Source: Cyanophora paradoxa CCMP329 (Eukaryota > Plantae > Glaucophyta). From it: a stretch of DNA of 64,000 bases. The stretch is taken from contig QPMI01000428.1 of the NCBI GenBank assembly GCA_004431415.1, forward strand, positions 440,514 through 504,513, given 5' to 3'. The notes under the pieces were generated by a model, which saw only the letters and a list, made by a program, of their open reading frames with translations, searched no databases and had not been told where the DNA came from. Made by a program: the position numbers and the translations under genes. Shown piece by piece: positions 30,742 to 63,694 of the stretch; position 1 is the first letter of the stretch; each line of letters opens with the position of its first letter.

Positions 30742-33057
30742 TCAGCGCCAGCCTTTGAGCCAGACGCGGGCCTCATACTGGGCCTTGGTGAGGGGCAGGG
30801 CGTAGACGAAGGGCGCCCAGTACACGTAGGCGGCGACGACGAGGGCGAGGAGGGCGGCGGCGACGGCCGCGAGGAGGCGGGGGCGGCCCCCGAAGAGCCG
30901 CTCGAGCAGCACCGCGCTCATGTACACGGCGCAGAGGAGCGCCGGGAAGTAGTGATAGAGGAACGTGCACCGCTTGATCGGCACGTAGCTGCAGGCGCGC
31001 GTCAGCTTCGGCGAGGGCGCGCGCGGGGCGCGCGTGCGGGGCGGGGCGGGCGGACGGGAGGAGGTTGAGGAGCCACTCCATTAAGAGGAAGGCGGTGAGG
31101 GAGAGGTAGCGCTGCGAGGCCGCCGAGAAGGGCACCTCGAAAAGCAGCATCGCCCCGCCCACCACCAGCGAGATCGCTGACTTTTGGCCTCAGCGCCGGG
31201 CCCCGCGGCGGGGCGGAGCGGGGGCGGTAGATCTAGAGCGGAGCGGACGCACCGACGAGGATTGAGGTGCCCCACCAGACGGCGGGGTTGCCGAGGAGGT
31301 AGATGCGAGCGAAGAGCTCTTCGCCCGTCTTCGGGTGCTTCCGGGGCGGGCTCGACTGCTCCTGCCAGTAGTAGATGCCACGCTTGTTCAGCGGCCACGA
31401 CCACCACTCGGACTGCCACGTGTGCGGCGTCTTGTTGCCCGAGCTCGTCGCGTACATCGTCCGCGTCATCTCCCACGCCTTCTGCAGGAAGGTGATCGGC
31501 TTCGCGGCCGCCCGCTCTTCCGGCGTAAGGCTCCCCTGCCGCCGCGCGCCCCGCCCCGTCAGGGGACAGGAAGGCCGCGGCCTGGCGGGGCGGGGCGAGG
31601 CGGGGCGGGACGGGCCTCGAGGGTGGCGCGGAAGGCAGGAGTCATGAACTTGTCCCCGGGGCCCGAGAGCGGCAGCATGCGGAAGTGGAGCCACTGCGCC
31701 GGCGTCAGGCAGCGGCGACGCGGGGCGGGCGGCGGGGCGGCCGGGCGGGGCGCGCCTGGAAGTAGACGTAGACGAGGACGGGAACGGCGGCGAGGAAGAG
31801 AGCGCGCGTGAGGAGGTCCCCGAAAAGTCGCAGGAGGGAGCCCCGTCCGCGCTTGGCCCGCAGGTTGTACAGCGTCTGCACGGCGGCGGCTAGGCATTGG
31901 AACCGCACTCGGACTCTATCTGGGCCGGCACTAGCTAGCCAGCTAGCTTTAGGCATCTGAAGCTCACCGCGACGACGTGGTGGACCCCGATGGCGCCCAC
32001 GGCGGCGAGGGCGGTCCACTTGACGCTCGCCGCGAGGCCTGCCGAGACGCCCGTCGCGACCAGCCAGAAGTAGTAGCCCCGCGAGAAGAGGCGCCTGTCG
32101 TCCTGCGTGTAGCTGTGCAGGCTGCGCCGGCGGGCGCCTCAGCGGCCAGCGAGGGCGGGGCGCGCGGGGCGCACCAGAACGAGCAGAGCATGGCGAGCGT
32201 GATGAAGAAGAACAGGAAGCTGTCGATGAGGATGAGGCGGGACTGGACGAGCAGCGCCGTGTCGAACACGATCATGCACGCCGCCAGGAACGACGCCGTC
32301 AGGGACGCGCCCAGCTGCCTCGCCGTGAAGAACACCAGCGGGCACGTCAGCGCGCTCGCGCTGCCGCGCGGGAGGCGGGTCAGGCTTTCAAGCAGGCCTA
32401 GGGGAGAGCCGCGACCGCATGCGCACAATGCGGGCGCCCCGCGGAGGAGCATGTACGGGACGTGTTGCCCGTCCGCGTACTTGCCTCTGATGCTCTTGAA
32501 CTCGAAGTCCCCCCGGTACTCCTTGCTGAAGCCCGCGGCCCACGCCAGAATCATCTTTCCCAGCGGCTGCGGGCGTGCGTTCGACGGCGCGGACCTCGCT
32601 CGGCCCGACCTCCCTCGCGCACCGGATGGATGTCGAAGAAGAACTTGCCCGTGAGATAGCCGTTCGCGAACTTGCCGAAGTGCACCTGCAGGCCCCGCGC
32701 GCGGCGTGAGATGCCGAATGCGGCCGGAAGCGGCGCGCCGACGGCGTGACGGGCCTCGTCGAAGACGACCTCCGGCGGGTTCGAGAGCATCCAGAAGCGG
32801 GTCGCGAACGCGAGGATGCAGATGATGAGGACGAGTCCGAGCGAGTTGTCCTTCGAGCTCGCCCACGTCTGGTCCCACGTCGCGACCAGCAGCGGGCCCG
32901 CCTGCTTCTTCGTGTCCTCCGCGTCCTCTAGCTCCGCGTCGATAGCGCGGGAAGCCGCGTCCGACGGCCTCGACACCACCGGCTCCTGCTTCCGCCGGCG
33001 AACCTCGGAAGTCGCGATATGCGAGCAACGCGGGCACGCCGCTGCATGCCCTGCCAT
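30742..33057 (-). CDS. Dolichyl-phosphate-mannose:protein O-mannosyltransferase (PMT/POMT, GT39), copy 1, no MIR domain
   Basis: [69 protein letters not shown] and FLYHYFPAL. Confidence 0.92.
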
Positions 33058-33689
33058 ATCCGCTAACCAGACGAACACTCTTGGCTAGCAACGTGCATAT
33101 GCGGTATGCGCGCTCGCTCGCTCTTGAATGCTCAAGCCCAAGCGGGCCAAGCCCCGCTCAAGCTTGGCCGGCTCAAGCTTGGCCGACTAGGGCTCGAAGG
33201 GGGGGTATTCAAGTCCAAGCGATCAGCGATGCCCCGCCGGCGCCATCCAATGATCGCGGTCCGCGGCCGCCTACCCAGCTAGCTAACAGCTAACAGCTAA
33301 CAGCTAACATCAGAACCCATGCCATGATGCATGCTAGCTAACAGCTGGCGAACCCGCGCGGCACGCCATGGCCAGTATGCGATCGAGCCTGCCATATGCA
33401 TCGCGGGGCGGCTTCTAGCACCGACTCGGCGAGTCAACCCGCGGGCCGGCCGGCCGCTGCCGCGCGCTACGGCAGCTGCGCATGCAGCCGCGCGCGCGCG
33501 CGCGCTAGACCGGCAGCGAGCTCGAGGCAGGCGCTGGCGCGCGGCATGCGATCTAGATCTAGATCTAGCGATAGCGAGGGCGCTATGTAGATGGCAACAA
33601 GCTCAGCTGCATGCGCAGCGCGGGACGTCGACGGACGCGCGGCGGCCGCGGCCGCGCGCGACCGCACGGGACTGAGCCTCGGAGGCGTG

Positions 33690-34520
33690 GCGGCCCTGGC
33701 GGGCGGCGGCGCGGCTCGCCGGGCGGGGCGGAGGCGCGCGGGGCGGAGGCGCGACTCGCCGGGCGGGGCGGAGGCGCGGCGGGCGGCGGCGCGGCTTAAC
33801 GGGCGGGGCGGAGGCGCGCGGGGCGGCGGATCGGCTCTCCAGGCGTGGTAAAGGCGCGACCGGCGGCGGCGCGGCTCACCGGGCGGGCGGAGGCGCGCGG
33901 GGCGGCGGATCGGCTCTCCAGGCGTGGTGAAGGCGCGACCGGCGGCGGCGCGGCTCACCGGGCGGGGCGGAGGCGCGCGGGGCGGCGGATCGGCACTCCA
34001 GGCGTGGCGAAGGCGCGGCGGGCGGCGGCGCGGCTCACCGGGCGGGGCGAAGGCGCGGCGAGCCGCGGCGCGGCTCCCCGGGCGGGGCGGAGGCGCGGCG
34101 GGCGGCGGCGCGGCTCGCCGGGCGGGGCGGCGGGGCGGGGCGGCGGGGCGGCGGAGTGGGGCGGCGGGGCGGCGGAGCGGGGCGGCGGCGCCGCGGCGCG
34201 GCTCGACGGGCGGGGCGGACGCGCGGCGGGTGGCGGCGCGGCTCGCCGGGCGGGGCGGCGGGGCGGCGGAGCAGGGCGGCGGGGCTGCGGGGCGGGGCGG
34301 CGGGGCGGAGGCGCGGCGGGCGGCGGCGCGGCTCGCCTGGCGGGGCGGCGGGGCTGGGCGGCGGGGCGGCGGCACGGCTCGCCAGACGGGGCGGCGGGGC
34401 GGCGGGGCGGAGGCGCGCCGGGCGGCAGCGCGGCTCGCTGGGCGCCGGCGGGGCCGCCCGGGGCCAAGCCGCGGCGGCGGAGCGGGGCGGCGGGGCGGCG
34501 GTGCGGCTCGATGGGCGGGG
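33690..34520. repeat. G-rich degenerate tandem repeat between the two PMT copies
   Basis: Recurrent ~40-bp unit GGGCGGGGCGGAGGCGCGGCGGGCGGCGGCGCGGCTC[A/G]CC, plus about 3 copies of an ~80-bp higher-order unit containing GGATCGGC[T/A]CTCCAGGCGTGG (33820-34070). Confidence 0.85.
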
Positions 34521-35139
34521 CGGACGCACGGCTTAAGTTTCTTCTGCCATTTAGATTTCGCTGCTGCGATAGCGAGCTAATGATCATGCATATGATCATG
34601 ATCGAAGTCTGGCCGACCCAGGCCAACGCCGAGAGAGCGCTAGCTGCAACCTGCAAATGCTGGGTTTGTTGATTTAGCCCCCGGCCACCTTGCACATCCT
34701 GATCGTGAGACGAGCAGGGGGCGGGGGCGGGAATTCACGCATTGAATTCGAATATCTACATCATGACATGGAAAATTAATCTGTACGTGGGCCCAAGTAT
34801 TCGCATGACAGCCTGCAGGCGGATCCCGGAAGTTGAGCTGCTGATCATGAAGGGCCTACAAGTATACGTAGGCTACAACTGGCCGCTTTCAATGGCTCTC
34901 TCGGTAGCGTGGAAAAACGGACTCGGAAACTTGAAAAACGGACTTCCGATCGAGGGAGAGAACGGACGGGAAACTCTTGTGTTAGAATGATTAGTGCTGG
35001 AATAATAGTCCTTGTTGTAATAATAATGAGAAAATTCTTGTGTTACAGTAAATGATGTTCGAATAGCTCCGATTGTGTACGAATAGCTATAGCTAGAGTC
35101 ATAAATGAAATGACGTATGCACGCTTAGGCAAGTCATGA

Positions 35140-37475
35140 TCAGCGCCAGCCGCTGAGCCAGATGCGGGCCTCGTACTGGGCCTTGGTGAGGGGCAGGGCG
35201 TAGACGAAGGGCGCCCAGTACACGTAGGCGGCGAAAATGACGGCGAGGAGGGCGGCCGCGACGGCCTTCAGGAGGCGGGGGCGGCCCCCGAAGACGCGCT
35301 CCAGCAGCACGGCGCTCATGTAGATCGCGCAGAGCAGCGCCGGGAAGTAGTGGTAGAGAAATTTCGATCGCGAGATCGATACGTAGCTGCGCGGGAGGGT
35401 GGGCTGGGGTCAGAGAGGGCGAGTGCCGGGGAAAGCAGGGCGGGGCGGGGCGGGCGGACGGGAGGAGGTTGAGTAGCCACTCCATAAAGAGGAAGGCGGT
35501 GAGGGAGAGGTAGCGCTGCGAGGCCGCCGAGAAGGGGACCTCGAAGAGCAGCATCGCCCCGCCCACCACCAGCGAGATCGCTGGCTTTCGCTCTAAGCGG
35601 ACGCCGGCGGGGCGGAGCGGGGCGGGAGTGGGGGCACCGACGAGGATTGAGGTGCCCCACCAGACGGCGGGGTTGCCGAGGAGGTAGATGCGCGGGAAGA
35701 ACTCCTCGCGGGTCTTCGGGTGCTTCCGGGGCGGGTTCGACTGCTCCTGCCAGTAGAGGATACCGCGCTTGTTCAGCGGCCACGACCACCACTCGGACTG
35801 CCACGTGTGCGGGTTCTTGATGCCCGAGTTCGTCGCGTACATCGTCCGCGTCATCTCCCACGTCTTCTGCAGGAAGGTGATCGGCTTCGCGGCCGCCCGC
35901 TCTTCCGGCGTAAGGCTCCCCTGCCGCCGCGCGCCCCGCCCCGTCAGGGGACAGGAAGGCCGCGGCCTGGCGGGGCGGGGCGGGGCGAGCCTCGAGGGTG
36001 GCGCGGAAGGCAGGAGTCATGAACTTGTCCCCGGGGCCCGAGAGCGGCAGCATGCGGAAGTGGAGCCACTGCGCCGGCGTCAGGCGGCGGCGGCGCGGGG
36101 CGCGGGGCGCGGGGCGGCCGGGCGGGGCGCGCCTGGAAGTAGACGTAGACGAGGACGGGAACGGCGGCGAGGAAGAGAGCGCGCGTGAGGAGGTCCCCGA
36201 AAAGTCGCGGGAGGGAGCCCCGTCCGCGCTTGGCCCGCAGGTTGTACAGCGTCTGCGCGGCGGCGGCGGCGGCGGCGGTTCACGATCAGACTCGGCGCTA
36301 GACGTCTCGCAGCCAAGTGGGCGCGAGGGCTCCGCGTGGGCCGCCCCGCAAGCAGACACGGCGCGCGCGGGGGGGCTCACCGCGACGACGTGGTGGACCC
36401 CGATGGCGCCCACGGCGGCGAGGGCGGTCCACTTGACGCTCGCCGCGAGGCCTGCCGAGACGCCCGTCGCGACCAGCCAGAAGTAGTAGCCCCGCGAGAA
36501 GAGGCGCCTGTCGTCCTGCGTGTAGCTGTGCAGGCTGCGCCGGCGGGCGCCTCAGCGGCCAGCGAGGGCGGGGCGCGCGGGGCGCACCAGAACGAGCAGA
36601 GCATGGCGAGCGTGATGAAGAAGAACAGGAAGCTGTCGATGAGGATGAGGCGGGACTGGACGAGCAGCGCCGTGTCGAACACGATCATGCACGCCGCCAG
36701 GAACGACGCCGTCAGGGACGCGCCCAGCTGCCGCGCCGTGAAGAACACCAGCGGGCACGTCAGCGCGCTCGCGCTGCCGCGCGGGAAGCGGGTCAGGCTT
36801 TCAAGCAGGGGTCGAGGGAGAGGGAGCCGCCGCCGCATGCGCACAACGCTGGCGCCCCGCGGAGGAGCATGTACGGGACGTGTTGCCCGTCCGCGTACTT
36901 GTCTCTGATGCTCTTGAACTCGAAGTCCCCCCGGTACTCCTTGCTGAAGCCCGCGGCCCACGCCAGAATCATCTTTCCCAGCGGCTGCGGGCGTGCGTTC
37001 GTCGGCGCGGACCTCGCTCGGCCCGACCTCCCTCGCTCACCGGATGGATGTCGAAGAAGAACTTGCCCGTGAGATAGCCGTTCGCGAACTTGCCGAAGTG
37101 CACCTGCAGGTCCCGCGCGCGGCATGAGATGTCGTATGTGGCGGGAAGCGGCGCGCCGGCGGCGTGACGGGCCTCGTCGAAGACGACCTCCGGCGGGTTC
37201 GAGAGCATCCAGAAGCGGGTCGCGAACGCGAGAATGCAGATGATGAGGACGAGTCCGAGCGAGTTGTCCTTCGAGCTCGCCCACGTCTGGTCCCACGTCG
37301 CGACCAGCAGCGGGCCCGCCTGCTTCTTCGTGTCCTCCGCGTCCTCTAGCTCCGCGTCGATAGCGCGGGAAGCTGCGCCCGACGGCCTCGACGCCGCCGG
37401 CTCCTGCTTCCGCCGGCGAACCTCGGAAGTCGCGATATGCGAGCAACGCGGGCACGCCGCTGCATGCCCTGCCAT
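35140..37475 (-). CDS. Protein O-mannosyltransferase (PMT/POMT, GT39), copy 2, no MIR domain
   Basis: Near-identical tandem paralog of 30742-33057 with the same motifs and intron positions. The 3' flank is also duplicated (30660-30720 vs 35050-35110). Confidence 0.92.
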
Positions 37476-37892
37476 TTCCGCTAAGCAGCGGGACACTCCT
37501 GGGCCGTCCTGGCTGACCCCGCTCACCAGCCGCACACCGCTACCCCCCGTACCCGCTGCACATGCAAGCTCGCACGAGCCTCGAGCTCGGGGCTCTTGAC
37601 CGCCGAATTCGAACAGCTCAAACTTGAGCTCGAGCTCAAGCCGCCGCTGGCTATCTGTTGGGCTTGAGGGTGGAGGGGTACGAAAGACCAGGCGGGCGGG
37701 CGGCGGGCGCGGCAGCTAGCGCTCGCGCGGCGGCTCACGGCGGCTCGCGCGGCATGCTCTCGCGCGCCGGGCTGGAGCCGATCCAAGGCCAGGGCCAGCA
37801 GGTCGGCGCCCGGCGAATTAAAGCGCAGAATTCAAATTAAAGCTTATAATTAAGGCGGCCGGCAGACAGAGAGGAGGGCGCGCGGCCGGACT

Positions 37893-39967
37893 CTAGAACT
37901 CGAGGGCGCCCCGCAGGACGGGCCGCAGGGCCGCCGCCACTCGCTCCACGACGCCCTCCCCCAGCGCCGCCGCCGCCCGCCCCGCCGCCCGGCCCCGCCT
38001 GAGGGGGCCGCCCTCAGAAAAGGGGAGCGAGAGGCGGGCGCGGGCGGGCGCCGGCGCCGGCGCGCCTCTGTGCCTCGGCGGGGTCCGACAGGAGAGAGGC
38101 GAGCGCCGTCTGGAGTTCCCCCTCGCTCGCGACCTGCGCGCGGGCGCCGGCGCCGCCCGCTGGAAGCTTGAGAGAGGGGTACGAGAGGGGAGTGGCGAGA
38201 GGCGCAGGCCGCACGGTCCAAAGGGCGTCGGGTTCGATTCCGGCCAGGTCCGAAGCAACGCCCGCGAAGTTCTCCGTGTGAGGGCCCTGCGCGAAGCGGC
38301 GAGGTCGGGGGTACTACGTGGATCCGTGCACGGCGAGGCGGGGGTACAGACCTGCAGGACGGCGCAGGAGGCGGCGGCGGGCTCGAGGAAATTGTGGCCC
38401 CCGATCCCTGGGTACAGCGATCCGCCCACGAAGCAGGCGGGCACGCAAGCGTAGAACGCGGGGAGCTCGCCTGTACCCCCCACCGCCGGCCTCGGCGGAG
38501 GGCTGAAAGAAGAAAGCGGGCAGGAGGGGTACCGAGCGTGTCGACGATGTAGACGGCTGTACCCGGGAGGAGGGGCTCGCCGAGGGATCGCCGGGCGGAG
38601 CGGAGGCCCCGGGTGGCGGCGAGGGCGGCGGCGGCGGCCCCCCGCTCCGGGTGCCGGGGGGCGAGGATCGTAAGGAGGCCGGGGTACGTCGAAGCCAGCG
38701 CCGCGTGCGCCCCCAGCGCCGCTGTTTGCGCGCTCGCGTCGGGGGTACAGCGAAATATGCGGGCGGGGGGGGGGGGGGGGGGGGAGGCAAGGCGGGGGCA
38801 CGCACCCTCCTCCTCGCCCTCGTGCGTGCTGGCCGCGAGCCAGGCGGGCCTACCCCCGATCGCCTCCCGCAGCGCGGTGCACTCTAGAGAGTTCGGGTCG
38901 GTCCGGCGCGACGCTGCCGTGGGTCAGAGGCGAGCGACGGGGGGTGGGAGGGCAGCAGGAAGGGGGTACCCGATTTTAGGTTGCCGAGGAAGGCGGGGGA
39001 GGGGGCGCCGAGGGCGGAGAAGCGAGCCCGGTCGGCGTCGGACTGGCAGAGGACGAGGCGGAAGCAGCGGGCGAGGAGGTATCGGGCGACGCCGCGCGCC
39101 GGCGCCGCGCGCGCCCAGCGGCCCTCCGACCGCCGCGACATGCGCGCGTTCACAAGCGCCAGCGGCACCTGATGCCGGCTGAGCTCGGACGGGGAAGGAG
39201 AGGGGTACGCGAATGCGCACGCCGCGGAGGTCCGCGGCGCGGCGGACGAGGTTGGGCCACAGCTCGGATTCGAAGAAGAGCCCCACTGTGGGCCGCCAGC
39301 GATCCAGGAACCGATCGATGGAAGGCGGGTGATCCAGCGGAGCCATCTGAGCGACGGTTGCTGAGGCGGGGCGCGGGCCGGGGAGCGGAGAGCGGGCCGG
39401 GGCTGACCTGGCAGCGGAATCGGGGGCCGTCGCGGCGCCGCATGAGAGCGTAGGCGCCGGCCGTGCCGACTGTTAGGAGAAAGAACGCCTCCGGATACTC
39501 GCCCTCCAGACGCGAGAGCAGCGGCAGCGTCGAGAGCGCCTCGCCTGGCGCGCGCAAGTGCCGGCTCAATGCGAGCGGCCGGTCGGCCGTGCGAGCCGGC
39601 TAGCTTACCGACGGAGACCGCGTGCAGCCACACCGTCCTGCGCGAGCCGTCGGTCCCGGCGGACGAGCCGCGGCCCCACTTCTGCGCCTCGGCCTCCGCC
39701 GCGTCCGCATCGCCGAGCCCGTGCTCCCGCAGCTGCCTCCGGAGCCGCTGCAGGAACAAGGCCGAGTAGAGAGACGGCAGCAGGTGCGTGGTCGCGCGCT
39801 CGTACGCCTGCAGGGCCCAGGGCGCTGCCGGCGGGCCTGGCAACCGGACATCGGCCGCCTGGAGCGCGCGGGCCGCGAGGGCGCGTACCGACGTGTGAGG
39901 AGGTGGTCAGCAACCTGCGAGAGAGCAGCAGCGCTGCCGCGCCGCCGGCGACGACCGTCCACCGCAT
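37893..39967 (-). CDS. kdtA: 3-deoxy-D-manno-octulosonic-acid (KDO) transferase, GT30, multi-exon
   Basis: VWLHAVSVGE, APLD, FFESELWPNL, LVNARMS, LCQS, GNLK, WLAASTHEGEE, GEL..FY, FVGGSL..GGHNFLEPA and GPHTENF form the WaaA/KdtA motif series. The N-terminus MRWTVVAGGAAALLLSRRLLTTSSH resembles a targeting presequence. Confidence 0.93.
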
Positions 39968-49838: not shown

Positions 49839-50162
49839 ATGGCAAGCGATCAAGTAACTCTACCTGAGAGTAAGCAATGCAATGTATGCAACAAGGTAAA
49901 ACCGGCATCGAGTTATACATTGCAAAAGGGTAGCTCAGGAAGTATACTTTTGAATTGGAGATGCAAAGTCTGCGAACGTGACTATCGCAATTACCTTTAT
50001 CATTTCGTGTTAAAAACGCGTCCGAAGATCGAAGTACAATCGAAGATATGCTCGCACTGCAAGATTGAGAAGCCTGCAAGCGAGTATAATAAAAAACAAA
50101 GCACAAAGGATGGTCTCTACTATCAATGCCGAGAATGTTATAGTAAAACTCGTAAGAGTTAA
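49839..50162 (+). CDS. Small viral Zn-finger protein (two K.C..C...KP..Y...C..C modules)
   Basis: Four CxxC pairs in two similar modules, resembling Zn-binding modules at the N-terminus of phage HNH/EndoVII proteins. No nuclease domain is present. Confidence 0.7.
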   Translation: MASDQVTLPESKQCNVCNKVKPASSYTLQKGSSGSILLNWRCKVCERDYRNYLYHFVLKTRPKIEVQSKICSHCKIEKPASEYNKKQSTKDGLYYQCRECYSKTRKS

Positions 50163-50664: not shown

Positions 50665-51684
50665 TTATGTGATACTTAGAAGTTCACCTGTGAAAAGTGT
50701 TCTACTTGAATAACTACCTGTGGAACCTGTGACAAGTGTTACATACTCACCAGCAGGAACATTGATAATTGCACTGAGAGTAAGAGGTTTTGTTGTGATA
50801 GTGGAATTAGCTTCTACTGAAATGTTAACTCCATTGGGTAAAAGATTATTTTTCAGAAAACTAAGACTTATTGCAGCACTTGTTGTTGAATTGGTATATG
50901 CTGTAAATCTATAATCACCTGCAACAGGAGCTGTAAACCTTCCATTAGTAACATCGAATGACCCTGTATTATTTATCAAAACGGTTGTCCAATTGATCAG
51001 AGCGGCTGCACTTGTAGCAACATGAGTATATCCAAGTTGAACAGAAAATCGTGGCTGAGAAACATATTTTAAATAGCTTGAATTCAGAGTCAAACGATTG
51101 GCTTCCAGTGTTGCAAAAAGATCACTGTTACGTTTTAACAGCAGATTAACATCTGCTCCTGTATCTATTTCAGGAGTGACCACCTTGGTTGATGCTGTTA
51201 TTATTGATTCTGTGGAATTGGGAATACTAATTCCAGCATTTGCTGTTACCAATCCTGTAAATGTGCTTGTTCCTGTTATGCTTACTTGATTGGCTGTAAG
51301 GGTTCCATCAATCCTTGCCCCATCTCCAATATAAGCGCCTCCACTTCTTACTACAAGAGCTGAGTTATTGATGGTGTTGTCAAAGGTAACAATCTTTGGT
51401 GTGGTGAACCCTCCCACATCATCATAAATTGCTGAATCTGATACAATCTGACCTGATTGAACTTGGTTCTTGTTTGAGACTATTAGACCTGTGGTTCTCA
51501 CCTTGCCTGCATTTCGATCACATCGAATTTCTTTGCATCTGATCACAGAATGTTGAGAGAATGAATCGGCTCCTGTGGTCTCTGTGCAAATGAAACCTGG
51601 GGTAGCATCTGTTACTGTATGGTTGAGTTGATGCAATTTCGGCGCTGCATAACAGAAAACAGGAACAGCTATTTGTGTAGACAT
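50665..51684 (-). CDS. Viral fibre protein with C-terminal C1q/TNF-like head (paralog A)
   Basis: Intact 339-aa ORF with a beta-rich shaft and C1q signatures PRFSV, NNTGSFDVTNGRFTAPVAGDYRF, GEYVTL and FTGELL. Confidence 0.8.
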   Translation of the reverse strand: MSTQIAVPVFCYAAPKLHQLNHTVTDATPGFICTETTGADSFSQHSVIRCKEIRCDRNAGKVRTTGLIVSNKNQVQSGQIVSDSAIYDDVGGFTTPKIVTFDNTINNSALVVRSGGAYIGDGARIDGTLTANQVSITGTSTFTGLVTANAGISIPNSTESIITASTKVVTPEIDTGADVNLLLKRNSDLFATLEANRLTLNSSYLKYVSQPRFSVQLGYTHVATSAAALINWTTVLINNTGSFDVTNGRFTAPVAGDYRFTAYTNSTTSAAISLSFLKNNLLPNGVNISVEANSTITTKPLTLSAIINVPAGEYVTLVTGSTGSYSSRTLFTGELLSIT

Positions 51685-51706
51685 TCTTTATATTATACAA
51701 ACAATA

Positions 51707-52770
51707 TTATGTAGCACTTACCAGGTAAACCAACAAGATGTGATTGCTTGGAAAGTCAATACTACCTAACATACAGTAAATTTGAAGACTGTCTCCCATG
51801 GTGAGGGTAATAAGAGCTTCGTAGCACATCTGATTCCTGCTTGATTGACTTGCATATGAAAGAATCTGATTTGTATTGTTTCCGTTTATTCTTAGTCCAA
51901 TCTGGGTCAAGGAGGCAGTTGCAGTATTGTCTTCCGTAATTGTAAAATAGACCCTATAAACTCCTGAAACAGGGCTGTAAATGTTGCTGGATACAGTTTG
52001 TCAAAATGACCCTCATTATTCACAAGATATGTTCCAACTGGAAAAGGAAGTGTTGGGGTGCCGGAACTAACACTTGTTCCAAAAATCTGAGCGTTTGCTT
52101 GTTGTCCTGAAATACACATTCTTGGGCAATAGCTGCGTTTAAGACCACTGTTTGTTGGAAATGTGATTGCTTTCAGATCTGTTATTGTCTTTTCGAGAGT
52201 GAAAATGATATCTCCGTTTCGTTTATAATTCACATTTGCATCTGTCCCATTATCCATCTCAGGTGCATTAACTCTTGTAGTAGCTATTCGAGTAACATAG
52301 TTAACATCTCCTGAGAGACCACCATTAAAGGTCATCAATCCTGTGAATACACTTGTCCCACTCACATTTAATTGGTTTGCTGTAACAGTTCCTGCTACAT
52401 TTGCTCCATCTCCAATGTAGGCTCCTCCACTCTTGACTACAACAGCAGAATTATTACTTGTGTTACCAAAAGTAACTATCTGAGCTGTGGTAAATCCACC
52501 CACATTATCATATATTGCCGAGTCTGAAACCACTTGACCTGCTTGAACTTGATTTTTATTCGAGATTATAATTCCTGTGGTTCTTATCTTGCCTCCATTG
52601 CGATCACATCGAATCTCTTTGACTCTGAGTATATTATTCTCTGTGAAAGAGGTATTACTTGAAGTTTCAGTGCAAATAAACCCGGGTGTAGAATCAACTA
52701 CTTCATGAGAGGTGCTGTGTAGTGATTTTGCTGCAAGTTCATAGTTTGGGATTTCTAATAGAGAGGTCAT
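51707..52770 (-). CDS. Viral fibre protein with C1q-like head (paralog B), one apparent frameshift
   Basis: N-terminal ~140 aa closely match paralog A (TPGFICTET, KEIRCDRN, SDSAIYD.VGGFTT, SGGAYIGDGA). Adding one base in the GGG run at ~51973 restores FTAPVSGVYRVYF and joins ORF 51707-51910. Confidence 0.75.
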
Positions 52771-52789
52771 CTTTATATTAATCAAATAG

Positions 52790-54355
52790 TTAAATTGCGA
52801 CAGCAGTGTAATGAATTGTAACTGGAAATCCTGGTCTGTCAAAAGAACTTAATGGAACTATGTCAAGCTCACAAGTGAAATAGCTACTGTAAACTTGTTT
52901 AAGCCTTACATACATGCGGTAGTAGTAGGCTGTCTCATTGTGTTGTATACCGGTTGTTACAATAGGAGGGTTAGCAAAGCTGCTGTTGAAATTAATAGTG
53001 AGGTTAAACCTATGGTCAGGGTTTGCCCAAAGATAAGGAGTAGTGTAAACATACGTTCCTGCTTGAATTTTCCCATTAAAATATGCATTGAGTTGACTGG
53101 AAAGATCTGCTTCTGTAATGCATCTACTGATAGTCTGATTATTTGAAGGGTTCATAGCATAGAAATTCCTTGCATAGGCATTCCCTCTCACAAGTAAGGT
53201 TTTATCAAAGTAATTCTGCGAATTGTGGAAGAACCATGTTTCTTCAAACATAGGTCCTGCTGGTTCTACAATCTGACCTGATCCTACATACATTGTGTTG
53301 TTGGCTCTTATAGTGGTAGCTGTGAATGGATCCAGAGTAGGTCGATCTGTAATATCTCCCCAAAGGTGGGTGTGTGCGAAATCTGTAATTTGGGATTTTG
53401 TATGAGTATGAGCAAAGTCTGTAATTTCACCTTTGGTGTGAGTGTGAGCAAAATCTGTAATCTCACTCTTGACATGAGTGTGTGCAAAATCTGTTATCTC
53501 ACTCTTGACATGAGTGTGTGCAAAATCTGTAATCTGTGATTTTGTGTGAGTGTGCGCGAAATCTGTGATTTCCGATTTAAAATGAGTGTGAGCGAAATTA
53601 GTAATATCTGCTCGGGTATGGGTGTGTGCAAAATCTGTTATTTGGGATCTGGTGTGAGTGTGTGCAAAATCTGTGATTTCTGCCTTTGTGTGGGTGTGTG
53701 ATCTATTATTAAGGTCGAGGAAACTCCCCGAAAATGCAACAGGGTGTAGATTAGCTGCGGTGGGTTTGTTTATGAGATCATTATAGTCTCCTGAGAACGA
53801 AACCGTTTTCAGTTCACCCCTTCCTACATAATCAGAAGGGAGGTCAATTTTTATGGGCATTATAGCTGGATCATCTGGGATCACATACTCTCCACCTGTG
53901 TGAACCACAGGGTATCTTCGAATATACATATTGGATGCACCCATGAGAGGTGCTACAATGGGCACATCCGAATTAACGAGATTGCAAGTGATGGAGAAAA
54001 TGGTTTTGGGGGCATACAGATTGCAATCAAAGGTCACAGTGGCGGGATCAATAGTAGGATCTACATTTGAACAGATCTGAAACATCCACCCACCCACACA
54101 GTTGCAATTTAAATTGCGAAAGGCTGTGCCTGCCATTGCATCCACATAGCCTATTCCACTTGCAATGTCATAGATGTGCCCAAACTCATAACCAAAAATG
54201 TCATTCCACAGGTTGGAAGCCATAGCTCCCATCACATACCCTTTCAAATTTACAAGTAGGTCATTGGATTCACTGGGTATATTGCTATGGGTTATGTAAA
54301 ATTGATTATTCAACACAGCATTCCTAATTGTCGTCTCTACTATGGGCTCCGTCAT
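52790..54355 (-). CDS. Phage-type tail-fibre protein with HxH repeats and a C-terminal H-type-lectin/gp53-like domain
   Basis: Intact 521-aa ORF with SGDYNDLINKP and SGSFLDLNNR fibre motifs, ten AHTHxKxxITDF-type repeats, and C-terminus INFNSSFANPPIV...YFT...IHYTAVA. Confidence 0.8.
   Translation of the reverse strand: MTEPIVETTIRNAVLNNQFYITHSNIPSESNDLLVNLKGYVMGAMASNLWNDIFGYEFGHIYDIASGIGYVDAMAGTAFRNLNCNCVGGWMFQICSNVDPTIDPATVTFDCNLYAPKTIFSITCNLVNSDVPIVAPLMGASNMYIRRYPVVHTGGEYVIPDDPAIMPIKIDLPSDYVGRGELKTVSFSGDYNDLINKPTAANLHPVAFSGSFLDLNNRSHTHTKAEITDFAHTHTRSQITDFAHTHTRADITNFAHTHFKSEITDFAHTHTKSQITDFAHTHVKSEITDFAHTHVKSEITDFAHTHTKGEITDFAHTHTKSQITDFAHTHLWGDITDRPTLDPFTATTIRANNTMYVGSGQIVEPAGPMFEETWFFHNSQNYFDKTLLVRGNAYARNFYAMNPSNNQTISRCITEADLSSQLNAYFNGKIQAGTYVYTTPYLWANPDHRFNLTINFNSSFANPPIVTTGIQHNETAYYYRMYVRLKQVYSSYFTCELDIVPLSSFDRPGFPVTIHYTAVAI
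53345..53702 (-). repeat. Ten degenerate 36-bp coding repeats (12-aa AHTHTKSQITDF)
   Basis: Visible in the translation and as recurring GTGTG[T/A/C]GC[A/G]AAATCTGT on the + strand. Confidence 0.92.
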
Positions 54356-54393: not shown

Positions 54394-57300
54394 TTACATA
54401 ACGTTTGGAACATGTTCATATATTCTTCCTTCTCGCTGTGCCATTTCCGCCATAAAGTCTGCATTATCTTTTATTATTGATTCAGCCATTCGTTGTGCTC
54501 GTGATTTTTTGGGTGCTGCCCTACTTGCTGGTGGTTGATCAGTTCTCACAACACTTAGACCATGCCCCTCGGCTGACCTCACCTCTAAGCCCACATCTCC
54601 TTCGGCTGTTTGGGTCACATTCAGCTCAGGTGTGGAGTATTTATTACCTGCTCCTGCAATGGTTCTGTCTATGCAAGCACAACATAAAGCTCGGAATTTG
54701 TATGCAAGCACAAGCCCAAGAGCACCGAGAATCGGTAAGAGAATCATAAGCACTAACGTTCCTGGATCAGTTCCCGGTGCTCCGACTGGATTAGTAGGAT
54801 TTGTGGGATTATTAGGTGTTGTAGGATCAGTGGTAGGTGGGGTCTGTGGGTCTGACTCATCAGGAGGCAAGTTAGGATCTGAATCTGGGGCGGTTCCGTC
54901 GACCCTGCTAATGAGGTCGGCGCTGTGTATGCATTTGCAAACACGATGGGAGCCGTCGCTGGATTTCCTGTGGAGGATCCTGAGATTGCACCATAGGTAT
55001 CTGACAGATATTTATACAATTCCTGTGTCACAGGCGGATTACTCACAGATCGACACACCCAAATATTGCATGTGGTATCATAGACTGTGTCCCTGATAAA
55101 GGGCGGTAGAGCCGTCCCACTGAATGACTCAAAGAGTCCATTTCGCGATAGCAACCTATGTCCTGTATCACAATTCCCACCCTCAAAGTACTTCGAAGCC
55201 GAAATCGCACCTTGCACATAAATATTGCATGTCGAATGCAATCCAATGTTATTTAGGTTAGGAGTGTATCTGTCATCAAGCCGGACAGTGCACACCCATG
55301 GGGAAGCGGTTTTTATATATTTCTTATCGCCTGCTGTGATCACATCAGTGTTTGGGTGGCTGTCAATTTGGGTAGCAATAGACTCATATTTGTAAGAGTA
55401 ATAAACTAAGAGACCATCTGTGGAGGATGTAAAATAAAAGAAGTCTCTCATGAAGTCTGTGGATCCAAAGAAGTCAGCATTGGTCGATGTTAGGGTGACT
55501 CTGGGATAGCTCATGTTGACAGTCTCAGAAGGATATGGAATATAAGAGGTGTAATAGCGATTTAACAGATAATAGTAAAATCCATCTGAGACATTCGAGT
55601 GAGTGGGCAAGGTCACTGTTAAGGTCTTACTGCGATCCTCAAACGTTTTATGTATGACAATATTGCAAGTATTAATGTATCGAGAATCGAAAAAGTAATT
55701 ATTCGTCACTCGATTATCGATCAGAGTCGCATTGGTTCCATTAAACACGAAATTCTGCCCATTAATTCTCGTAGTATGAATGTCGGTCACATCGAGAGGA
55801 TACCTTATTTTTAATCGATCTTCGGAGTCAAACCGAGGTATAGTTCCTGTTGCCTTCCAACTAATAGTAAAGGGAGGAGAAAGGGACACTGCTGGGATAA
55901 CGGAAAGATTGAATTTCGCGAAGTACAATCCAACAGGATACCCTGACAGAGCATATGTGACAGTGGCATTTCCAACAAGTGTAAAGCCGGTTGTTGTAAT
56001 GTTAGTTGCAAGAAATGGGGAGTAGCCTGCGGGTGCATTTTGAAGTGAGGTAGATGACCCATCATTGACGACATACAAGTTGGTGTCTGTTATTTCAATT
56101 GTAGGAGGGGAGACAAATGGAGACTCAAATGTGAAATTAAAACTCGCTGGAACCCCTGCAAGATATCTATATGAGACCGATCCTATTTCAGATGCCTGGA
56201 ATACTTTGCTTCCACTCCGCACTACATTACTTGTGTCTTTCACATTGTGGTATGATATGCTGGGAGTCGGGGAGAGCACCAACGAAATAGCATCTGGTAA
56301 ATCAGACTTTGTTATATACAGCTCTTTAAGATACTCCTTTCTAAAAGGCGCGGTCAGATCTCCAATAGTAGCCGATGAACCTGCGACTACAATATTACAG
56401 GTGTTTGCACTCAAAGAATAAACTGTGTTCCACCTTAAAGAGTTCGCGCCAAGATCGAAATTCTGTGAGAAGGGCACGATATTGCTACCTTGTAAATCTC
56501 GGTAAACCTTTACTCTGGGTTCGCTATCGAATTCAGGGGTGATATAATTGATGGTAAGAGTGAAACTTATAGTAGCTTCGGAAGTCAATAAGTTGTTTCG
56601 GATGATAAGTAAATTGTATGTCTCGTTAATGACAAACGAAATCTGAAACCCTGTGGAGGTGACATTTTGAATAAATGCTTTATTCGATTCATTATTGTTA
56701 GTGATAGGATTATAATAAGTAGTGTGATCCACCAATGAAACAGTGGGTATAGTCGTCTCGAAACCTGTGACACCCAACTGATCCCAAGTGAATGTAAATG
56801 TAGGTTTGCCTACATAAGCGACAAAGACCCCATTTGCAATCTGCTGAGGGTATCCTTCGACAGTGTAGGTCTCAGTTTGCGAAACTGAGCGGGAAAGGTT
56901 GCTATTAAAGTCAGTGTAGCTGATCAGTGCATTATCATTGGTGAGAATCTGATTGGGTCGGAGTGAGTGATTAAATGGAAGGATTAAATTGGAGGCAAAC
57001 ATGGAAACTCCATGCAACTCTGACCATCTCAGATTCGAGAGACCAATTCGGTATGTGTTGTCAGTCGCGGGGTAAATGTTCCTTTTCGATAAAATATGGG
57101 CTAAGGTAATTGCAAGCGCTCCATCTGCTGCAAACAGAGCATTAATTTCGGATTGCAAAGCCGCGATTTCAGTAGTGTGGGTCGTGAGGGTTCCATCCTG
57201 ACTTGAATCTTTGGTGTTCTTGCTCCTCTCGAACTCCAAAAACGCCTTTACGATGTCCTTGCCTAAAAGATCGTTTATATTGTCTCTGGTAATGTAAACA

Positions 57301-58105
57301 TGATCTGTTCTCAGTGCTGTTTCTCTGTGGTAAAAGCCGGAATCTCCTCTGCAAATGATATAGTCGTTTTATCAAGTGCTAAGGATCTCACATTCGGAGC
57401 ATTGGCGCCAATTATATCCACAACGTTCCCATTTTCGACAATTTCTAAGGTCGGTTTCGCGGGGTCTAATGTGAAAACACCCTCTGTTATCTGGGGAACC
57501 GATTCGCTCTTCTGAATCACAAAGGATTCGATGTTTAGGTTACAGGTTGCGACATTGGTGGCGAAAAACGACTCGGAGTTAAGCGAGTTTACGTTAAGAG
57601 TATTTGTAGATATGTTACTTGCTGTAATATTACTCGTCGTTAGATTACCTGCTGAGAGATCATGAACGACCTCTACCTTTGTTTTCCGTGTGGATACTCC
57701 CGCTATAAGTGTGCTATTATCCACGATTCGCATAGCTGCATTTTGGAAACCGCTCTCATCTTGAATGAAGAAGTTTAAGCGACCTCTATCGAATGCTTTT
57801 GGGATGTTCCTACGATTATATCGCACCGTTTTCGGTAGCTGGCGGGTTGCCTGAATGCTGGCGACTCTGTTTCGTTCGTTATCATCAAGTAAAAAGTCGA
57901 TTCCAAGTTTATGATCCCCTTTCTCGACGTTCATTAACTGCAAAGCTGCGGGTCTGCTCGGTGTTCCACTGACTGGATCTTCGCGGTCTGCATTGTAATT
58001 TATTCTCAGAGACCCGCGAATTTCAGTGTTTACCTGATCAGTGTCCTCTATCTGAGTGGTCGAATTAATAACTCGTGCGTCTGGTCGCGGATTCAGGAAC
58101 GACAT
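54394..58105 (-). CDS. Large (~1,240 aa) fibre-like viral protein with a C-terminal transmembrane helix, two apparent frameshifts
   Basis: Three ORF-track pieces join if one base is added at ~57321 (GAGAAA[A]CA gives EKTALRTDHVY...LEFERSK) and at ~54888 (gives EPPPDSDPNLPPDE). Contains fibre motifs YPATDNTYRIGLSNLRW and PFSQNFDLGANSLRW, lectin/gp53-like segments, a P/T/N/D linker and TM LVLMILLPILGALGLVLAY followed by KFR and CCAC. Confidence 0.65.
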
Positions 58106-58148
58106 CCTCTTTATAAACAAAGAAGATATATAAGAAGTATATAAGATA

Positions 58149-59676: not shown

Positions 59677-60520
59677 TTAATCCGTGATCACTTCGAGCTG
59701 GAACGAGAATGAGAGACCGTTTATATCCGCAACAGAGCCCGCCATTTTCGAAGCGATATTGTGAGACGATCTAAATCGAGTTGCGATGTGACATTTACGA
59801 AAGGGATGCTTGCGCTCGGTTCGTGGTAAAAGGAATATCTACCAAAGTCCGAGTTCATCTGAATTCGCAATAGATAGGAGTCGTCGACATTGTTCTGTCT
59901 ACCTGTAACCGCTGCGAATTTGGTAAACGGGCGGAGCTCTTCGATATCAAGGTAAATATATGGAATTGCATTAAAGTCGACCATTTTCGGGCATATAATC
60001 GCGTAGCGACTGGGGTAATCTCTGAGTGGAACCGGCACTGGTTCTGGTGTGCTGGCGTAAACCACTCCGGGTTCTATGCCGAGACAGTCACAGAACTCCT
60101 GGTCTGATGACTCTAATGTAAAAGGGCTATTCGGAGATGAGAAAACGAAGCGGTTTGTGGACAGAGCGAGAGAATAGGAAACCGGGAAGAGACCGAGAGG
60201 ATTAAAAGAACCGCCTGAAAAACCGAGTAAAGCATCACTGTTTAAAGCTCTCTCTTTCGGATATCGTTCGTTATCAGCATCGACGTAATAATAATCGTTT
60301 ACGCTGGGAATCGGCGCCATCACTTGGATGCTGGTATGACTGAGGGCGTCTCATTCAGAAGCTTTATAGTGATTGTCTGATTGGGTGGAACAACGTAAGA
60401 GCTATTGGGAATCTCAGCGGATAGCACACGAAATCGTCGTACATTATTAAGGCGCGTTTTCAAGTGCAGCACGCCGTTTTCAAGGTCTCTACTGTCGCAA
60501 TTTATTGTTATTCTTTTCAT
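59677..60520 (-). CDS. Minor capsid (penton)-like protein 1, apparent frameshifts
   Basis: INCDSRD, LNNVRRFRVLSAEIPNS, YIYLDIEEL, LDRLTISLR and, after a frameshift, G..ADINGLSFSFQLE, which follow the single-jelly-roll penton pattern of PLVs and NCLDVs. Confidence 0.7.
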
Positions 60521-60536
60521 AATCTATTATAGTAAG

Positions 60537-61460
60537 ATGAAAGAATACCTGAGCTTTTCGAGCGATGATCGCGATGAGGAGTTTACTCAGCCAAACCAGT
60601 ATGTAGTGACATTACCCCGTCGCTATGACAACGTAAAATCGGTGCGCCTGGTGCAGGCAACGGTTCCAATGTTCTTTCGACCGTGACAAACGATATAGAC
60701 GCGACTGGTGCAACCATCGAGCGCATGGAACTCTATTTCTCGTCACAGCTTCGGATTCCGGATTCGTGACCATCACAATCCCCAAAGGATTTTACACCAA
60801 AGACGACCTTGCCGCAAAAGTCACAGAAAGACTCGAAGCAGCTCGCCTTTCAGATTTCGGTGGAAAATATATTAAATGCCGCTATAATACTACTTCAAAG
60901 ATCTATGAGTTTTTCAGTGATAGTAACTTTTGGTTCAAGTTCTCCAAAGCTTCCCCTGAAACACTCAGAAAATCCAGTAATCGCAAAGCAATCGCTAAGA
61001 AACTCGCAATATTCGGTTTCAAAGATATTCAGCTATATGTTTACGAGACATTTACCCCTTTTGCAAGCGATACATTCCTTGTGTTTAATCCTGGGACGGG
61101 AACTGTGACACTCAATCGACGCATTCGCGGCTATACTCGTGGAGATGAGACCCCGGCGGCGATGATCTGGCTATATATTGATGAATTTGCGCCGTTTATT
61201 CGCTCAGTCAACAAGCACGTCGATGGTTATTTCATGCGCATTCCAATCCCACAGGAACTCGAACATGGTGATATCTACCACTTCGACACGTCCACTACGG
61301 TGCCTCTCATTCGTGAATTCGCGAATTAAAATCTTTCGACCGCCTCACGATTAAACTCATCGACCATGATGGCGCTCTCTTAGATTTCGGGGTTTGGGCG
61401 CATTATTTCACTTTTGAAATCGAAACCTACGACGCACCGCCCGAAATGAATTTCTATTGA
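60537..61460 (+). CDS. Minor capsid (penton)-like protein 2, apparent frameshifts
   Basis: FSSDDRD...PNQYVVTLPRRYDNVKSVRLVQATVP, ITIPKGFYT, IWLYIDEF and FDRLTIKLIDHDGALLDF...YFTFEIE. TGA at 61460. Confidence 0.72.
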
Positions 61461-61506: not shown

Positions 61507-62815
61507 ATGGAGACTAACAGCCAATTCCAGCGCCCAACGCTGAAATCTATGCTCACCACCGATGACTACAAGGATTATTTCCTAAACAAGTCGCTGGTCA
61601 TTGGAACGTCCTCTGGCACTAAGCCACTTCGAGTTCTGGTCGCCCCGACACTGAGCCACCCAGCGCTCTCGGCAACCGAGTTGTCTTCAAAATCCCCCGC
61701 TACCATTTCCTGAATGGTCTCGCGCTGCAACTCGATCTTAACCGATCACCCTCACTGATCTCACGAATGGTGTCGCTGGAACTACTGGCTACCTTCGCGT
61801 TATTGGATCGCTAATTAAGCGCATTGAAATCTCTCACGCTTCATTCCGCTATGTTGTCCCAGAGGATTTCGTCACCCAGTATTTTCTACTGATGACCGAA
61901 CAGGGCGAACTCGATAAGAAACTTCGCTATGTGGGTGGTCTTGTCGGAACCGCTGGTAACACTGTCGGTGGAACCTACGAAATCGATTTACCTCTCCTTT
62001 CGAGAAGGCGATGTTCCCACTTTGCGCTCTGAACTCTGAGATCGTGGTCGAAATCGAATTCAAGGCGATTGGTGATGGTATCATTGAGGATGTAAACAAT
62101 GTTGGCAATATTTCGGTCGTAAACAGTGGTGCTTCCTTCAAGTGCTGAAACCCCGCATTATCTGCAAGGTCGTAAATGCCGATGAGGCGGTTGTATCTGA
62201 GACCATTGCCCGTGTTAAATCGACTGGTATCGCGATCCCCTACAACGAAATCGGTTTCCTACACACAGATTTCCAGCCGACCGCCTCCGGTTCGCGAGTC
62301 AATCTCTCGCAACTCACAGGTGCGGGTCTCATCCACACTCTCGTATTCTCTGTGCGCCAAAACGCGAAGACGAAGGTGAACAACGGAACTCTCTCGGTTC
62401 TGGCTCCTCGTGCACTCCGAACCAACGCTGTGAACTTCTATGTGGAACTCAACAATAACCGCCTTTACTCGAATACTTCGCTTCCTCTCATGATTGCCGC
62501 GACCGAACTTCAAGATAAATATAATTCGGCGATCTTTACCGAGAGCACAAGCTACCCGCTCTCACTGGCATTTACTTCGGTGCTGGAAACGGAAAGGCGT
62601 CGCTTCTCAACCAAGAGAACACGGGCTACATCGATGCCACAGGCACATCGGCGTTCGATCTGGTCTTCGAATTCAATGGTGTCACAGCCGGTGGAGTCGG
62701 TAATGAGGAGTGGTATGCGGGCTCCGCGTATCAGAAGATGCAAATTCAGTGCATTGCCCTCGCTCATAACATAATGATAATTTCCGCCGACGGAATCCGA
62801 AGAGTATCAGCATGA
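61507..62815 (+). CDS. Major capsid protein (double jelly-roll, PLV-type), ~435 aa, several apparent frameshifts
   Basis: Reconstructed reading includes VVFKIPRYHFLNGLAL, SLIKRIEI, MFPLCALNSEIVVEIEF, GIAIPY, IHTLVFSVR and HNIMIISADG. Size and position between penton and ATPase fit a capsid gene. Confidence 0.7.
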
Positions 62816-62872
62816 GGAATTCGTGCGATTACCACATTCAGTCTTATTTTTCTATTGTTTTATAGTGAAAGA

Positions 62873-63694
62873 ATGCAAAAAGGGACGACGCCCATGGATC
62901 TCGAAGAATGGAACCGAAACAAAGGGTGAAACTTCCCGCACGATTTCTCCTATTGGCGAAAACCAATTGTGGTAAATCGGTATTCTTAAAGTGGCTGATC
63001 AAAGAACTCGAAGACCAGATCTCGTATGTCTGGTTTTCTGTCCTACGAGTTTTAACGGTTTCTGGGTCAAATAACAGACGAAGTGCATGATACTGGAAAC
63101 CGGAATATGTAGAGTCGATCATAGAAGCCCGCAAGAAAGCTATCATCGCTGGAAAGAACCAAAGAATATTCTCATCGTACTCGACGATTGTTTGAGTCCG
63201 GAACTATCGATCTTTCGCGCGATCATTTGCTAAATAAATTGATGGCGCAAGGTCGTCATACGTTTTGTTCCGTCGCTTTAATATCGCAGAAACTAACAAA
63301 GCTTCAACGATCATTCGCAGCAATGCGGAGTATATCATATTCCTAAGCTGGTCAAACATGCGAGAGTTTGAAGCATATCACGAAGATTCGGGAACATGGA
63401 TAAAGAGAGTTTAAGCGCATGTTCCAAGAATTCTGTCATAGCTACCAAGCGATCATTCACGATAATACCGGGTATTCTGTGCGATGGTGGGTCGAAAAAG
63501 CCGATATGATCGATGACCATCCGTTTACTAAATTCCACAAGCGGGCGGCTTTTGAAGAAAAGAAGCGCAAACAACAAGAGGAGCAAGCGACAAAACCGCC
63601 GCCTGTCAAAGATTCGACAACTGTCTGTAAAACTTTATCCAAATTTGAGCGTGAGCTTGAAGGTATCCCCAAACTTTCCGCAAATTTCGCCTAA
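62873..63694 (+). CDS. A32-like (FtsK/HerA) genome-packaging ATPase, many apparent frameshifts
   Basis: Walker A AKTNCGKS (62956-62979), Walker B NILIVLDDC, then MAQGRH, ISQ and IRSN, in the order typical of viral packaging ATPases. Confidence 0.88.

Follow-up and report, generated by a model that had tools for sequence, protein, structure and literature searches.

Large, modular fibre proteins of phage-like appearance are an established feature of polinton-like viruses (PLVs). Those described from protist PLVs exceed 1,000 aa and carry lectin modules, and the glaucophyte representatives include a fusion of phage-tail repeats (PTR) with H_lectin, reported once, in Cyanophora paradoxa, as well as a patatin fused to discoidin (PMC12220804). 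In the same account, these fibres dock on pentons with neither covalent nor membrane links, and the text and supplements of that study contain no match to the word 'transmembrane' (PMC12220804). Similarly, the small algal PLV Gezel-14T combines a phage-like fibre, Ltf, with a lipase; Ltf was found in the particles, which are presented as proteinaceous shells, and its description in that report mentions no membrane anchor (10.1101/2022.07.28.501842).

Membrane proteins have been described separately. The small capsid-forming parasite Zamilon vitis encodes the transmembrane protein za3_7, which is reported to be missing from the Zamilon particles, themselves free of membranes, but to abound in those of giant viruses, indicating that a parasite of this kind can produce a membrane protein destined for a giant virus's particle rather than for its own (PMC11464507). 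A fusogen of nematode Polintons suggests envelopment, and the envelopment of Polinton-like elements outside nematodes is stated as an open question in the same preprint (10.1101/2023.08.22.554363). Vaccinia H3, a glycan-binding attachment protein with a C-terminal helix, is anchored post-translationally outside the secretory route and exposes its N-terminal domain on the virion (PMC6336343), and the signal-peptide-free membrane protein MYRF carries tail-spike-related trimer parts before a single helix (PMC3742443). Fibres of PLVs, membrane proteins of virophages and a proposed envelope of Polintons have all been published individually. By contrast, we found no published report of a PLV protein that fuses a fibre to a membrane anchor, the 2024 review of the polinton-like supergroup and bioRxiv supplements lying outside the scope of this search. 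Here, we describe a gene of C. paradoxa whose sequence points to such a fusion.

The fibre-anchor reading frame and its variation among copies

The gene is contained in a stretch of 64,000 nucleotides (contig QPMI01000428.1 of C. paradoxa CCMP329), referred to as the window, and comprises the following features:

54394..58105, minus strand: complete gene for fibre and anchor, 1,237 aa, interrupted by two single-base frameshifts in the window
57320..58105, minus strand: first 262 aa, lacking a signal peptide, a shaft of beta repeats that weakly matches phage tails
57316..57319, minus strand: break 1, one more base in the short-read contigs of four of four runs
57132..57191, minus strand: aa 306-325, coiled coil predicted to be trimeric, modelled contacts at heptad spacing
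57012..57080, minus strand: tail-spike stalk motif 1, PxxDNxYxLGxxxxRW type, aa 343-365, from homologue search and trimer model
56502..56894, minus strand: H-lectin-like domain D1, aa 405-535, most of which lies outside the confident trimer interface
56382..56489, minus strand: aa 540-575, second tail-spike stalk motif, which includes TCNI and makes up the core of the predicted trimer
55791..56213, minus strand: H-lectin-like domain D2, aa 632-772, which repeats D1
54924..55790, minus strand: further fibre-like region, three TCNI motifs, without family match
54763..54923, minus strand: Pro/Thr-rich stalk, contains break 2 (behind 54886), varies among copies
54700..54759, minus strand: single predicted transmembrane helix, aa 1117-1136, from hydropathy
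54673..54699, minus strand: KFR and CCAC directly after the helix, from the sequence
54397..54699, minus strand: hydrophilic 101-aa tail, from the sequence and its variants

In the window, this region is divided among three minus-strand frames (58105-57314, 57368-54756 and 55011-54397). The first-pass annotation had read them as a single gene after two single-base corrections and had singled out the junctions around 57321 and 54888 for verification. Logan contigs of four of the 24 listed runs (X1, X3, X4 and X5) aligned to the window, and all four runs carry one extra base behind 57316, representing 85, 77, 100 and 100% of the depth, and another behind 54886, representing all of the local depth. 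Among the listed records, the first site is spanned with at least 31 letters on either side by X4 record 21 and the second by X1 record 2 and X3 record 11. When an X is placed at each break, a frame of 1,237 aa without a single stop results. Both junctions therefore close, in line with the earlier claim, and the data support the view that fibre and anchor form one open reading frame. The outcome named beforehand as refuting that claim, a separate ORF at 54394-54870 with the fibre ending at 54753, did not arise.

An in-frame join is demonstrated for about a third of the copies only. The contig that connects fibre and anchor reaches 32-40% of the depth of the fibre-body contigs (contig depth not being a copy number), and loose contig ends concentrate in the linker. 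Tail and fibre-body contigs have similar depths (2658 vs 2862 in X3; 3679 vs 3791 in X5), and the remaining copies have a different linker, whose reading frame was not seen. The patatin, capsid and ATPase genes nearby are also frameshifted, as expected for the noisy assembly of a repeat, and false frameshifts have been reported for endogenous PLVs (PMC10120064). The insertion in the window itself may be a decayed copy.

The fibre-anchor frame is under selection across copies. From a total of 254 differences among copies, the 40 best-supported ones were listed, and two of them were dropped because they lie in the next gene. Among the 38 counted, a non-random subset of the 254, 24 are silent and 14 are replacements, with no stops; the expected silent fraction is 23.6% (p 2e-7). 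In the tail, two of the three variants listed are silent; an insertion close by is offset by a deletion, which keeps the frame. None of the 40 listed differences falls within the helix.

Architecture of the predicted protein

The earlier claim of tail-fibre motifs was borne out by homology. The N-terminal part, whose fibre nature is supported, weakly matches PHROG 1330 (E 0.005) and PHROG 4815 (E 0.019). The middle piece, compared with 1.84 billion representatives, gave 12 matches (E 8e-10 to 5e-4), all of them repeat-bearing fibre-like proteins that align mainly at the PxxDNxYxLGxxxxRW-type stalk motif, and nine of them also match End_tail_spike (PF12219), in its C-terminal stalk part. Moreover, the TCN[IL] motif, whose repetition had been pointed out before, occurs five times, far beyond chance (TCN[ILV] in 5000 shuffles: mean 0.019, maximum 2).

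Structure prediction suggests how these segments may be arranged. Three copies of aa 305-600 obtained a score of 0.80, compared with 0.00 for the best of three controls, with a pLDDT of at least 61 (about 62) and a contact agreement between runs of at least 78%; the corresponding mark was passed by 21 of 30 solved pairs and none of 23 single chains, in a calibration on two copies only. The confident contacts are formed by the coiled coil and the two stalk segments and leave most of D1 outside. The product is thus predicted to be a three-stranded, homotrimeric phage-type fibre, although the pass may stem from resemblance to solved tail spikes. AlphaFold models of the protein had low confidence (pLDDT 30.7 and 39.9), and a fold comparison based on the weak model, which returned no match, carries no information.

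The lectin-like domains proposed previously are present as two related repeats, D1 and D2 sharing 26% identity at a score that none of 500 shuffles equalled, but their assignment to H_lectin is weak: the match (E 3.7e-4, 21 bits) falls under the Pfam cut-off of 24, and the separate domains reach E 0.008 and 0.16. A candidate third repeat at aa 816-945 scored no better than shuffles and was rejected.

Relatives of the complete protein were sought with its individual pieces. None of 7,989 candidates for the middle piece and none of 2,472 for the N-terminal piece proved to be a full-length relative. For the anchor piece, searches of viral, metagenome and prokaryote contigs confirmed no relative, and for the trimer region viral contigs gave none. 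Likewise, the fibre protein had no sequence match in the PDB and none in GenBank phages, and no related loci were recovered with the capsid gene as query. A homologue with the same fibre-anchor fusion was not found in these searches.

At its C-terminal end, the protein departs from the PLV fibres described so far. Where an S74 chaperone is reported for these proteins (PMC12220804), it terminates in a stalk, a helix and a tail containing cysteines, and Peptidase_S74 (PF13884) is not matched by any of its pieces. The first-pass annotation had noted each element of this region, and all are evident from composition and hydropathy. The linker (aa 1060-1112) consists of 28% P and 19% T, and the helix at aa 1117-1136 is the sole strong hydrophobic stretch, with a Kyte-Doolittle 19-mer value of 2.64 (next best in the protein, 1.63), which supports its role as a membrane anchor of the fibre. 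KFR, CCAC and 101 hydrophilic residues follow. The flanking charges, -1 before and +2 after the helix, point to a cytosolic tail.

The N-terminus is not hydrophobic. The best 11-mer in the first 60 aa reaches only 0.31, as judged by hydropathy, in agreement with the lack of an obvious signal peptide noted earlier, and inspection of internal Met residues revealed no apparent signal peptide there either. A stretch at aa 321-339 was considered as a second, internal signal anchor and rejected, given that it overlaps the coiled coil and makes a poor membrane helix on the Hessa scale. N-glycosylation sequons are not enriched (19 vs 18.6 in shuffles), a count at chance that we discarded as evidence. 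We also rejected a fresh capture of the tail from the host, whose GC content is 70%, because the GC3 of the anchor piece (0.30-0.32) lies within the range of the element (0.24-0.45). Type I viral envelope glycoproteins share the single C-proximal helix followed by basic and Cys residues but differ from this protein, which lacks an N-terminal signal peptide and sequon enrichment. The real oddity of the sequence is that its charges imply a cytosolic tail, whereas no signal peptide is apparent that could export the 1,116 residues before the helix.

The surrounding element

The first ~47 kb of the window are eukaryotic and GC-rich (mostly 0.6-0.74) and include protein O-mannosyltransferase and Kdo-transferase genes. 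From ~49.5 kb to the window end, the GC content drops from about 0.70 to 0.39-0.48 and genes are densely packed, and the many variant contigs per run indicate that this element is multi-copy. Low GC content, dense genes and multiple inserted copies in the genome of a protist are expected of a polinton-like element, and the gene likely resides in a multi-copy integrated PLV. PLVs are 14-40 kb long, with terminal inverted repeats and a replication or integration gene; here there is no long inverted repeat in 46-64 kb, and the element extends beyond the window. Its visible part (about 15 kb) contains four fibre-like genes, a patatin-like phospholipase gene, candidate capsid genes and an ATPase gene, which, apart from the gene described above, are arranged as follows:

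50665..51684, minus strand: paralogous fibre with C1q tip, no helix
51707..52770, minus strand: fibre with C1q-like tip, frameshifted, no helix
52790..54355, minus strand: fibre with phage-tail repeats (PTR) and H-lectin tip, no helix
58149..59641, plus strand: patatin-like phospholipase; its C-terminal domain is frameshifted, looks discoidin-like by eye and has no Pfam match
59721..61460, no single strand: two divergent frameshifted genes, candidate minor capsid (penton) proteins, from motifs
61507..62815, plus strand: frameshifted candidate major capsid gene, pieces 48-69% identical to an intact 431-aa protein (P0013)
62860..63694, plus strand: frameshifted ATPase, with Walker A (KTNCGKS), Walker B (LDD), GRH and IRSN across frames

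Typical PLV genes include those for a double jelly-roll major capsid protein, a single jelly-roll minor capsid protein and an A32-like packaging ATPase. The names given to the capsid and ATPase genes here are our assumption, based on motifs and gene order. We take the two divergent genes to encode minor capsid (penton) proteins, their only match being DUF5901 at E 0.14, and the ATPase is presumably A32-like, judging from family motifs; the 60-aa piece of it that was scanned had no family match. The candidate major capsid protein has no sequence match in Pfam, NCBIfam or the PDB. Both the PTR and H-lectin fibre and the patatin with its discoidin-like domain match the published account of glaucophyte PLVs (PMC12220804). 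Only 43 nt separate the start of the fibre-anchor gene from the divergent patatin gene.

In 49.5-64 kb, three stretches among 13,006 windows of 19 residues have a Kyte-Doolittle value of at least 2.3, the two besides the anchor lying antisense to genes, and none of the other protein-coding frames contains a comparable helix. This region also contains no fusogen candidate, and no viral protease was found in the window. Membrane genes or a fusogen may be located beyond 64 kb, where the element continues.

Possible modes of membrane association

From the helix and the Cys cluster, the first-pass annotation had inferred that the virion has a lipid membrane or that the protein is displayed on a host membrane. 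The anchor itself stands. However, a lipid-containing virion does not follow from it, considering the helix-free fibres, the missing second helix and the precedent of za3_7. We favour, at slightly less than even chances, the idea that the protein is an adhesin that is synthesised in the cytosol and held in a membrane borrowed from the host or a helper virus, rather than in one built by the virus. We place this explanation first because no other comparable helix or fusogen was seen, because the element encodes helix-free fibres and a lipase, and because za3_7 provides a precedent, even though the latter is not described as a fibre and the parallel with our protein is one of description (PMC11464507).

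In such a scenario, the fibre would fold in the cytosol, since no signal sends it into the ER, and its C-terminal helix would then insert outside the classical secretory route, as in vaccinia H3. The Pro/Thr stalk would raise the fibre off the bilayer, the putatively acylated CCAC motif would follow the helix, and the lectin-like side domains could bind glycans. The spike might stud virus-assembly membranes derived from the ER, or else hold capsids to these membranes, with the three helix-free fibres and the lipase serving a naked capsid and with the host cell or a putative helper giant virus as the membrane lender. Giant-virus factories have open ER-derived sheets, both faces of which meet the cytosol. 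Sheets of this kind could square the charges around the helix with the missing signal peptide. Against this explanation, the charges, the CCAC motif and the Pro/Thr stalk resemble those of an ordinary type I protein, in which the fibre would be extracellular. The tail, moreover, would be long for insertion in the manner of H3, a protein of 324 aa with its helix at 283-305 and a tail of about 19 aa, compared with 101 here; H3 also resides in a poxvirus membrane, is not a trimeric phage fibre and shows no homology to our protein (PMC6336343).

It appears rather unlikely, but worth considering, that the virus's own particle contains an internal or outer lipid membrane in which the protein forms an anchored spike. 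The anatomy behind the fibre is indeed that of an envelope spike. Membrane-containing tectiviruses are not known to encode a maturation protease. A lack of this enzyme is recorded for glaucophyte PLVs (PMC12220804 Table S6), most varidnavirians possess a lipid membrane (PMC13598248), and nematode Polintons have been proposed to be enveloped, with other elements called open in this respect (10.1101/2023.08.22.554363). However, the nematode protein is a fusogen rather than a fibre (10.1101/2023.08.22.554363), and neither a fusogen candidate nor a second comparable helix is seen in 49.5-64 kb of this element. Three helix-free fibres and a lipase would also suit a naked capsid, and both Gezel-14T (10.1101/2022.07.28.501842) and Zamilon (PMC11464507) are described without membranes. 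We regard with similar reserve the broader notion of an algal PLV lineage, outside the nematode Polintons, that forms lipid-containing virions with a trimeric phage-type fibre spike inserted into the membrane without a signal peptide.

We consider it improbable that the anchor is temporary, keeping the chains at the ER during trimerisation until cleavage in or near the Pro/Thr linker frees the fibre for docking on the penton. MYRF, a membrane protein of type II, provides the model for such a process: its tail-spike chaperone sets a trimer free (PMC3742443). The linker lies exposed and differs between copies, and the tail occupies the place that the removable S74 chaperone has in other PLV fibres (PMC12220804). 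However, MYRF has a self-cleaving S74 domain and a DNA-binding domain (PMC3742443), neither of which was detected here; the lack of an S74 match in every piece and of a viral protease in the window speaks against cleavage, and a 101-aa tail with a cysteine cluster exceeds the needs of a disposable tether.

It is quite improbable that the protein reaches the host cell surface as a type I glycoprotein, where it could, for instance, prevent superinfection or capture viruses or cells. Positive-inside charges, the CCAC motif and a mucin-like stalk would fit this role, and the host encodes protein O-mannosyltransferases. However, ordinary surface display is hard to square with 1,116 residues preceding the sole hydrophobic segment, given that no signal peptide is found at the start or apparent at internal Met residues, that aa 321-339 would make a poor membrane helix and overlap the coiled coil, that sequons occur at chance frequency and that just 43 nt lie between the start and the divergent patatin gene. 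Finally, the junction contig leaves about 60-68% of the depth unexplained, but there is hardly any chance that the helix-bearing piece (54394-54870) is a separate small gene and the fusion an artefact or confined to few copies, since all contigs across the site have the extra base in four of four runs, the piece lacks an ATG before the helix, the fibre would without that base finish in an out-of-frame reading of the linker, and other long genes to the right are likewise frameshifted.

In the assembly, the fusion is obscured by the two frameshifts, and annotation would overlook it. A fibre held in a membrane would stand out, given that the particles of related viruses studied so far are described as bare protein shells. 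The fusion indicates either a membrane-bearing PLV or the use of host or giant-virus membranes by the element, and the fibre-anchor frame, under selection across copies, provides a concrete, testable marker.

Repeats within the fibre genes

Both lectin-like repeats of the fibre-anchor gene, a minus-strand gene of the putative viral element, close with the motif S-E-x-R-[LV]-K (56502-56530 and 55805-55830, minus strand), whose spacing resembles that of S-D-x-R-L-K, the cleavage motif of the self-cleaving S74 chaperones. A family scan of the fibre pieces detected no S74 domain downstream of the motif in either repeat. The neighbouring fibre genes include the following features:

53345-53736, array of a 36-nt unit, coding for the FAHTH-type PTR repeats of the PTR/H-lectin fibre
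50665-52770, two paralogous fibres with C1q-like tips (51% identity over 258 aa)

Putative left end of the element and a relative of the candidate capsid protein

Between 46900 and 49500, the GC content is intermediate, and open reading frames are short and frameshifted; a search for long inverted repeats across 46-64 kb revealed no terminal repeat at this putative left end of the element. Nearby lies:

49839-50162, plus strand, Cys-rich protein matching the zinc-binding part of the endonuclease VII and HNH families

P0013, an intact protein of 431 aa found as a single member and from Logan only, is related to the candidate capsid protein; a family search with it returned no match.

Host genes in the window

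11000-26000, plus strand, very large gene region whose TETP repeats, numbering in the hundreds, are read in shifting frames
31200-39900, minus strand, two almost identical copies of a protein O-mannosyltransferase gene and a Kdo transferase gene

A giant surface protein is the likely product of the first region, which also codes for domains resembling filamin or invasin and, at the C-terminus, for a membrane helix.

A possible shared promoter

In several genes of the element, TATAAAG or TATAAG lies a few bases 5' of the start codon (58106-58148, 52771-52790 and 51685-51705), and it is conceivable that these genes have a promoter in common.
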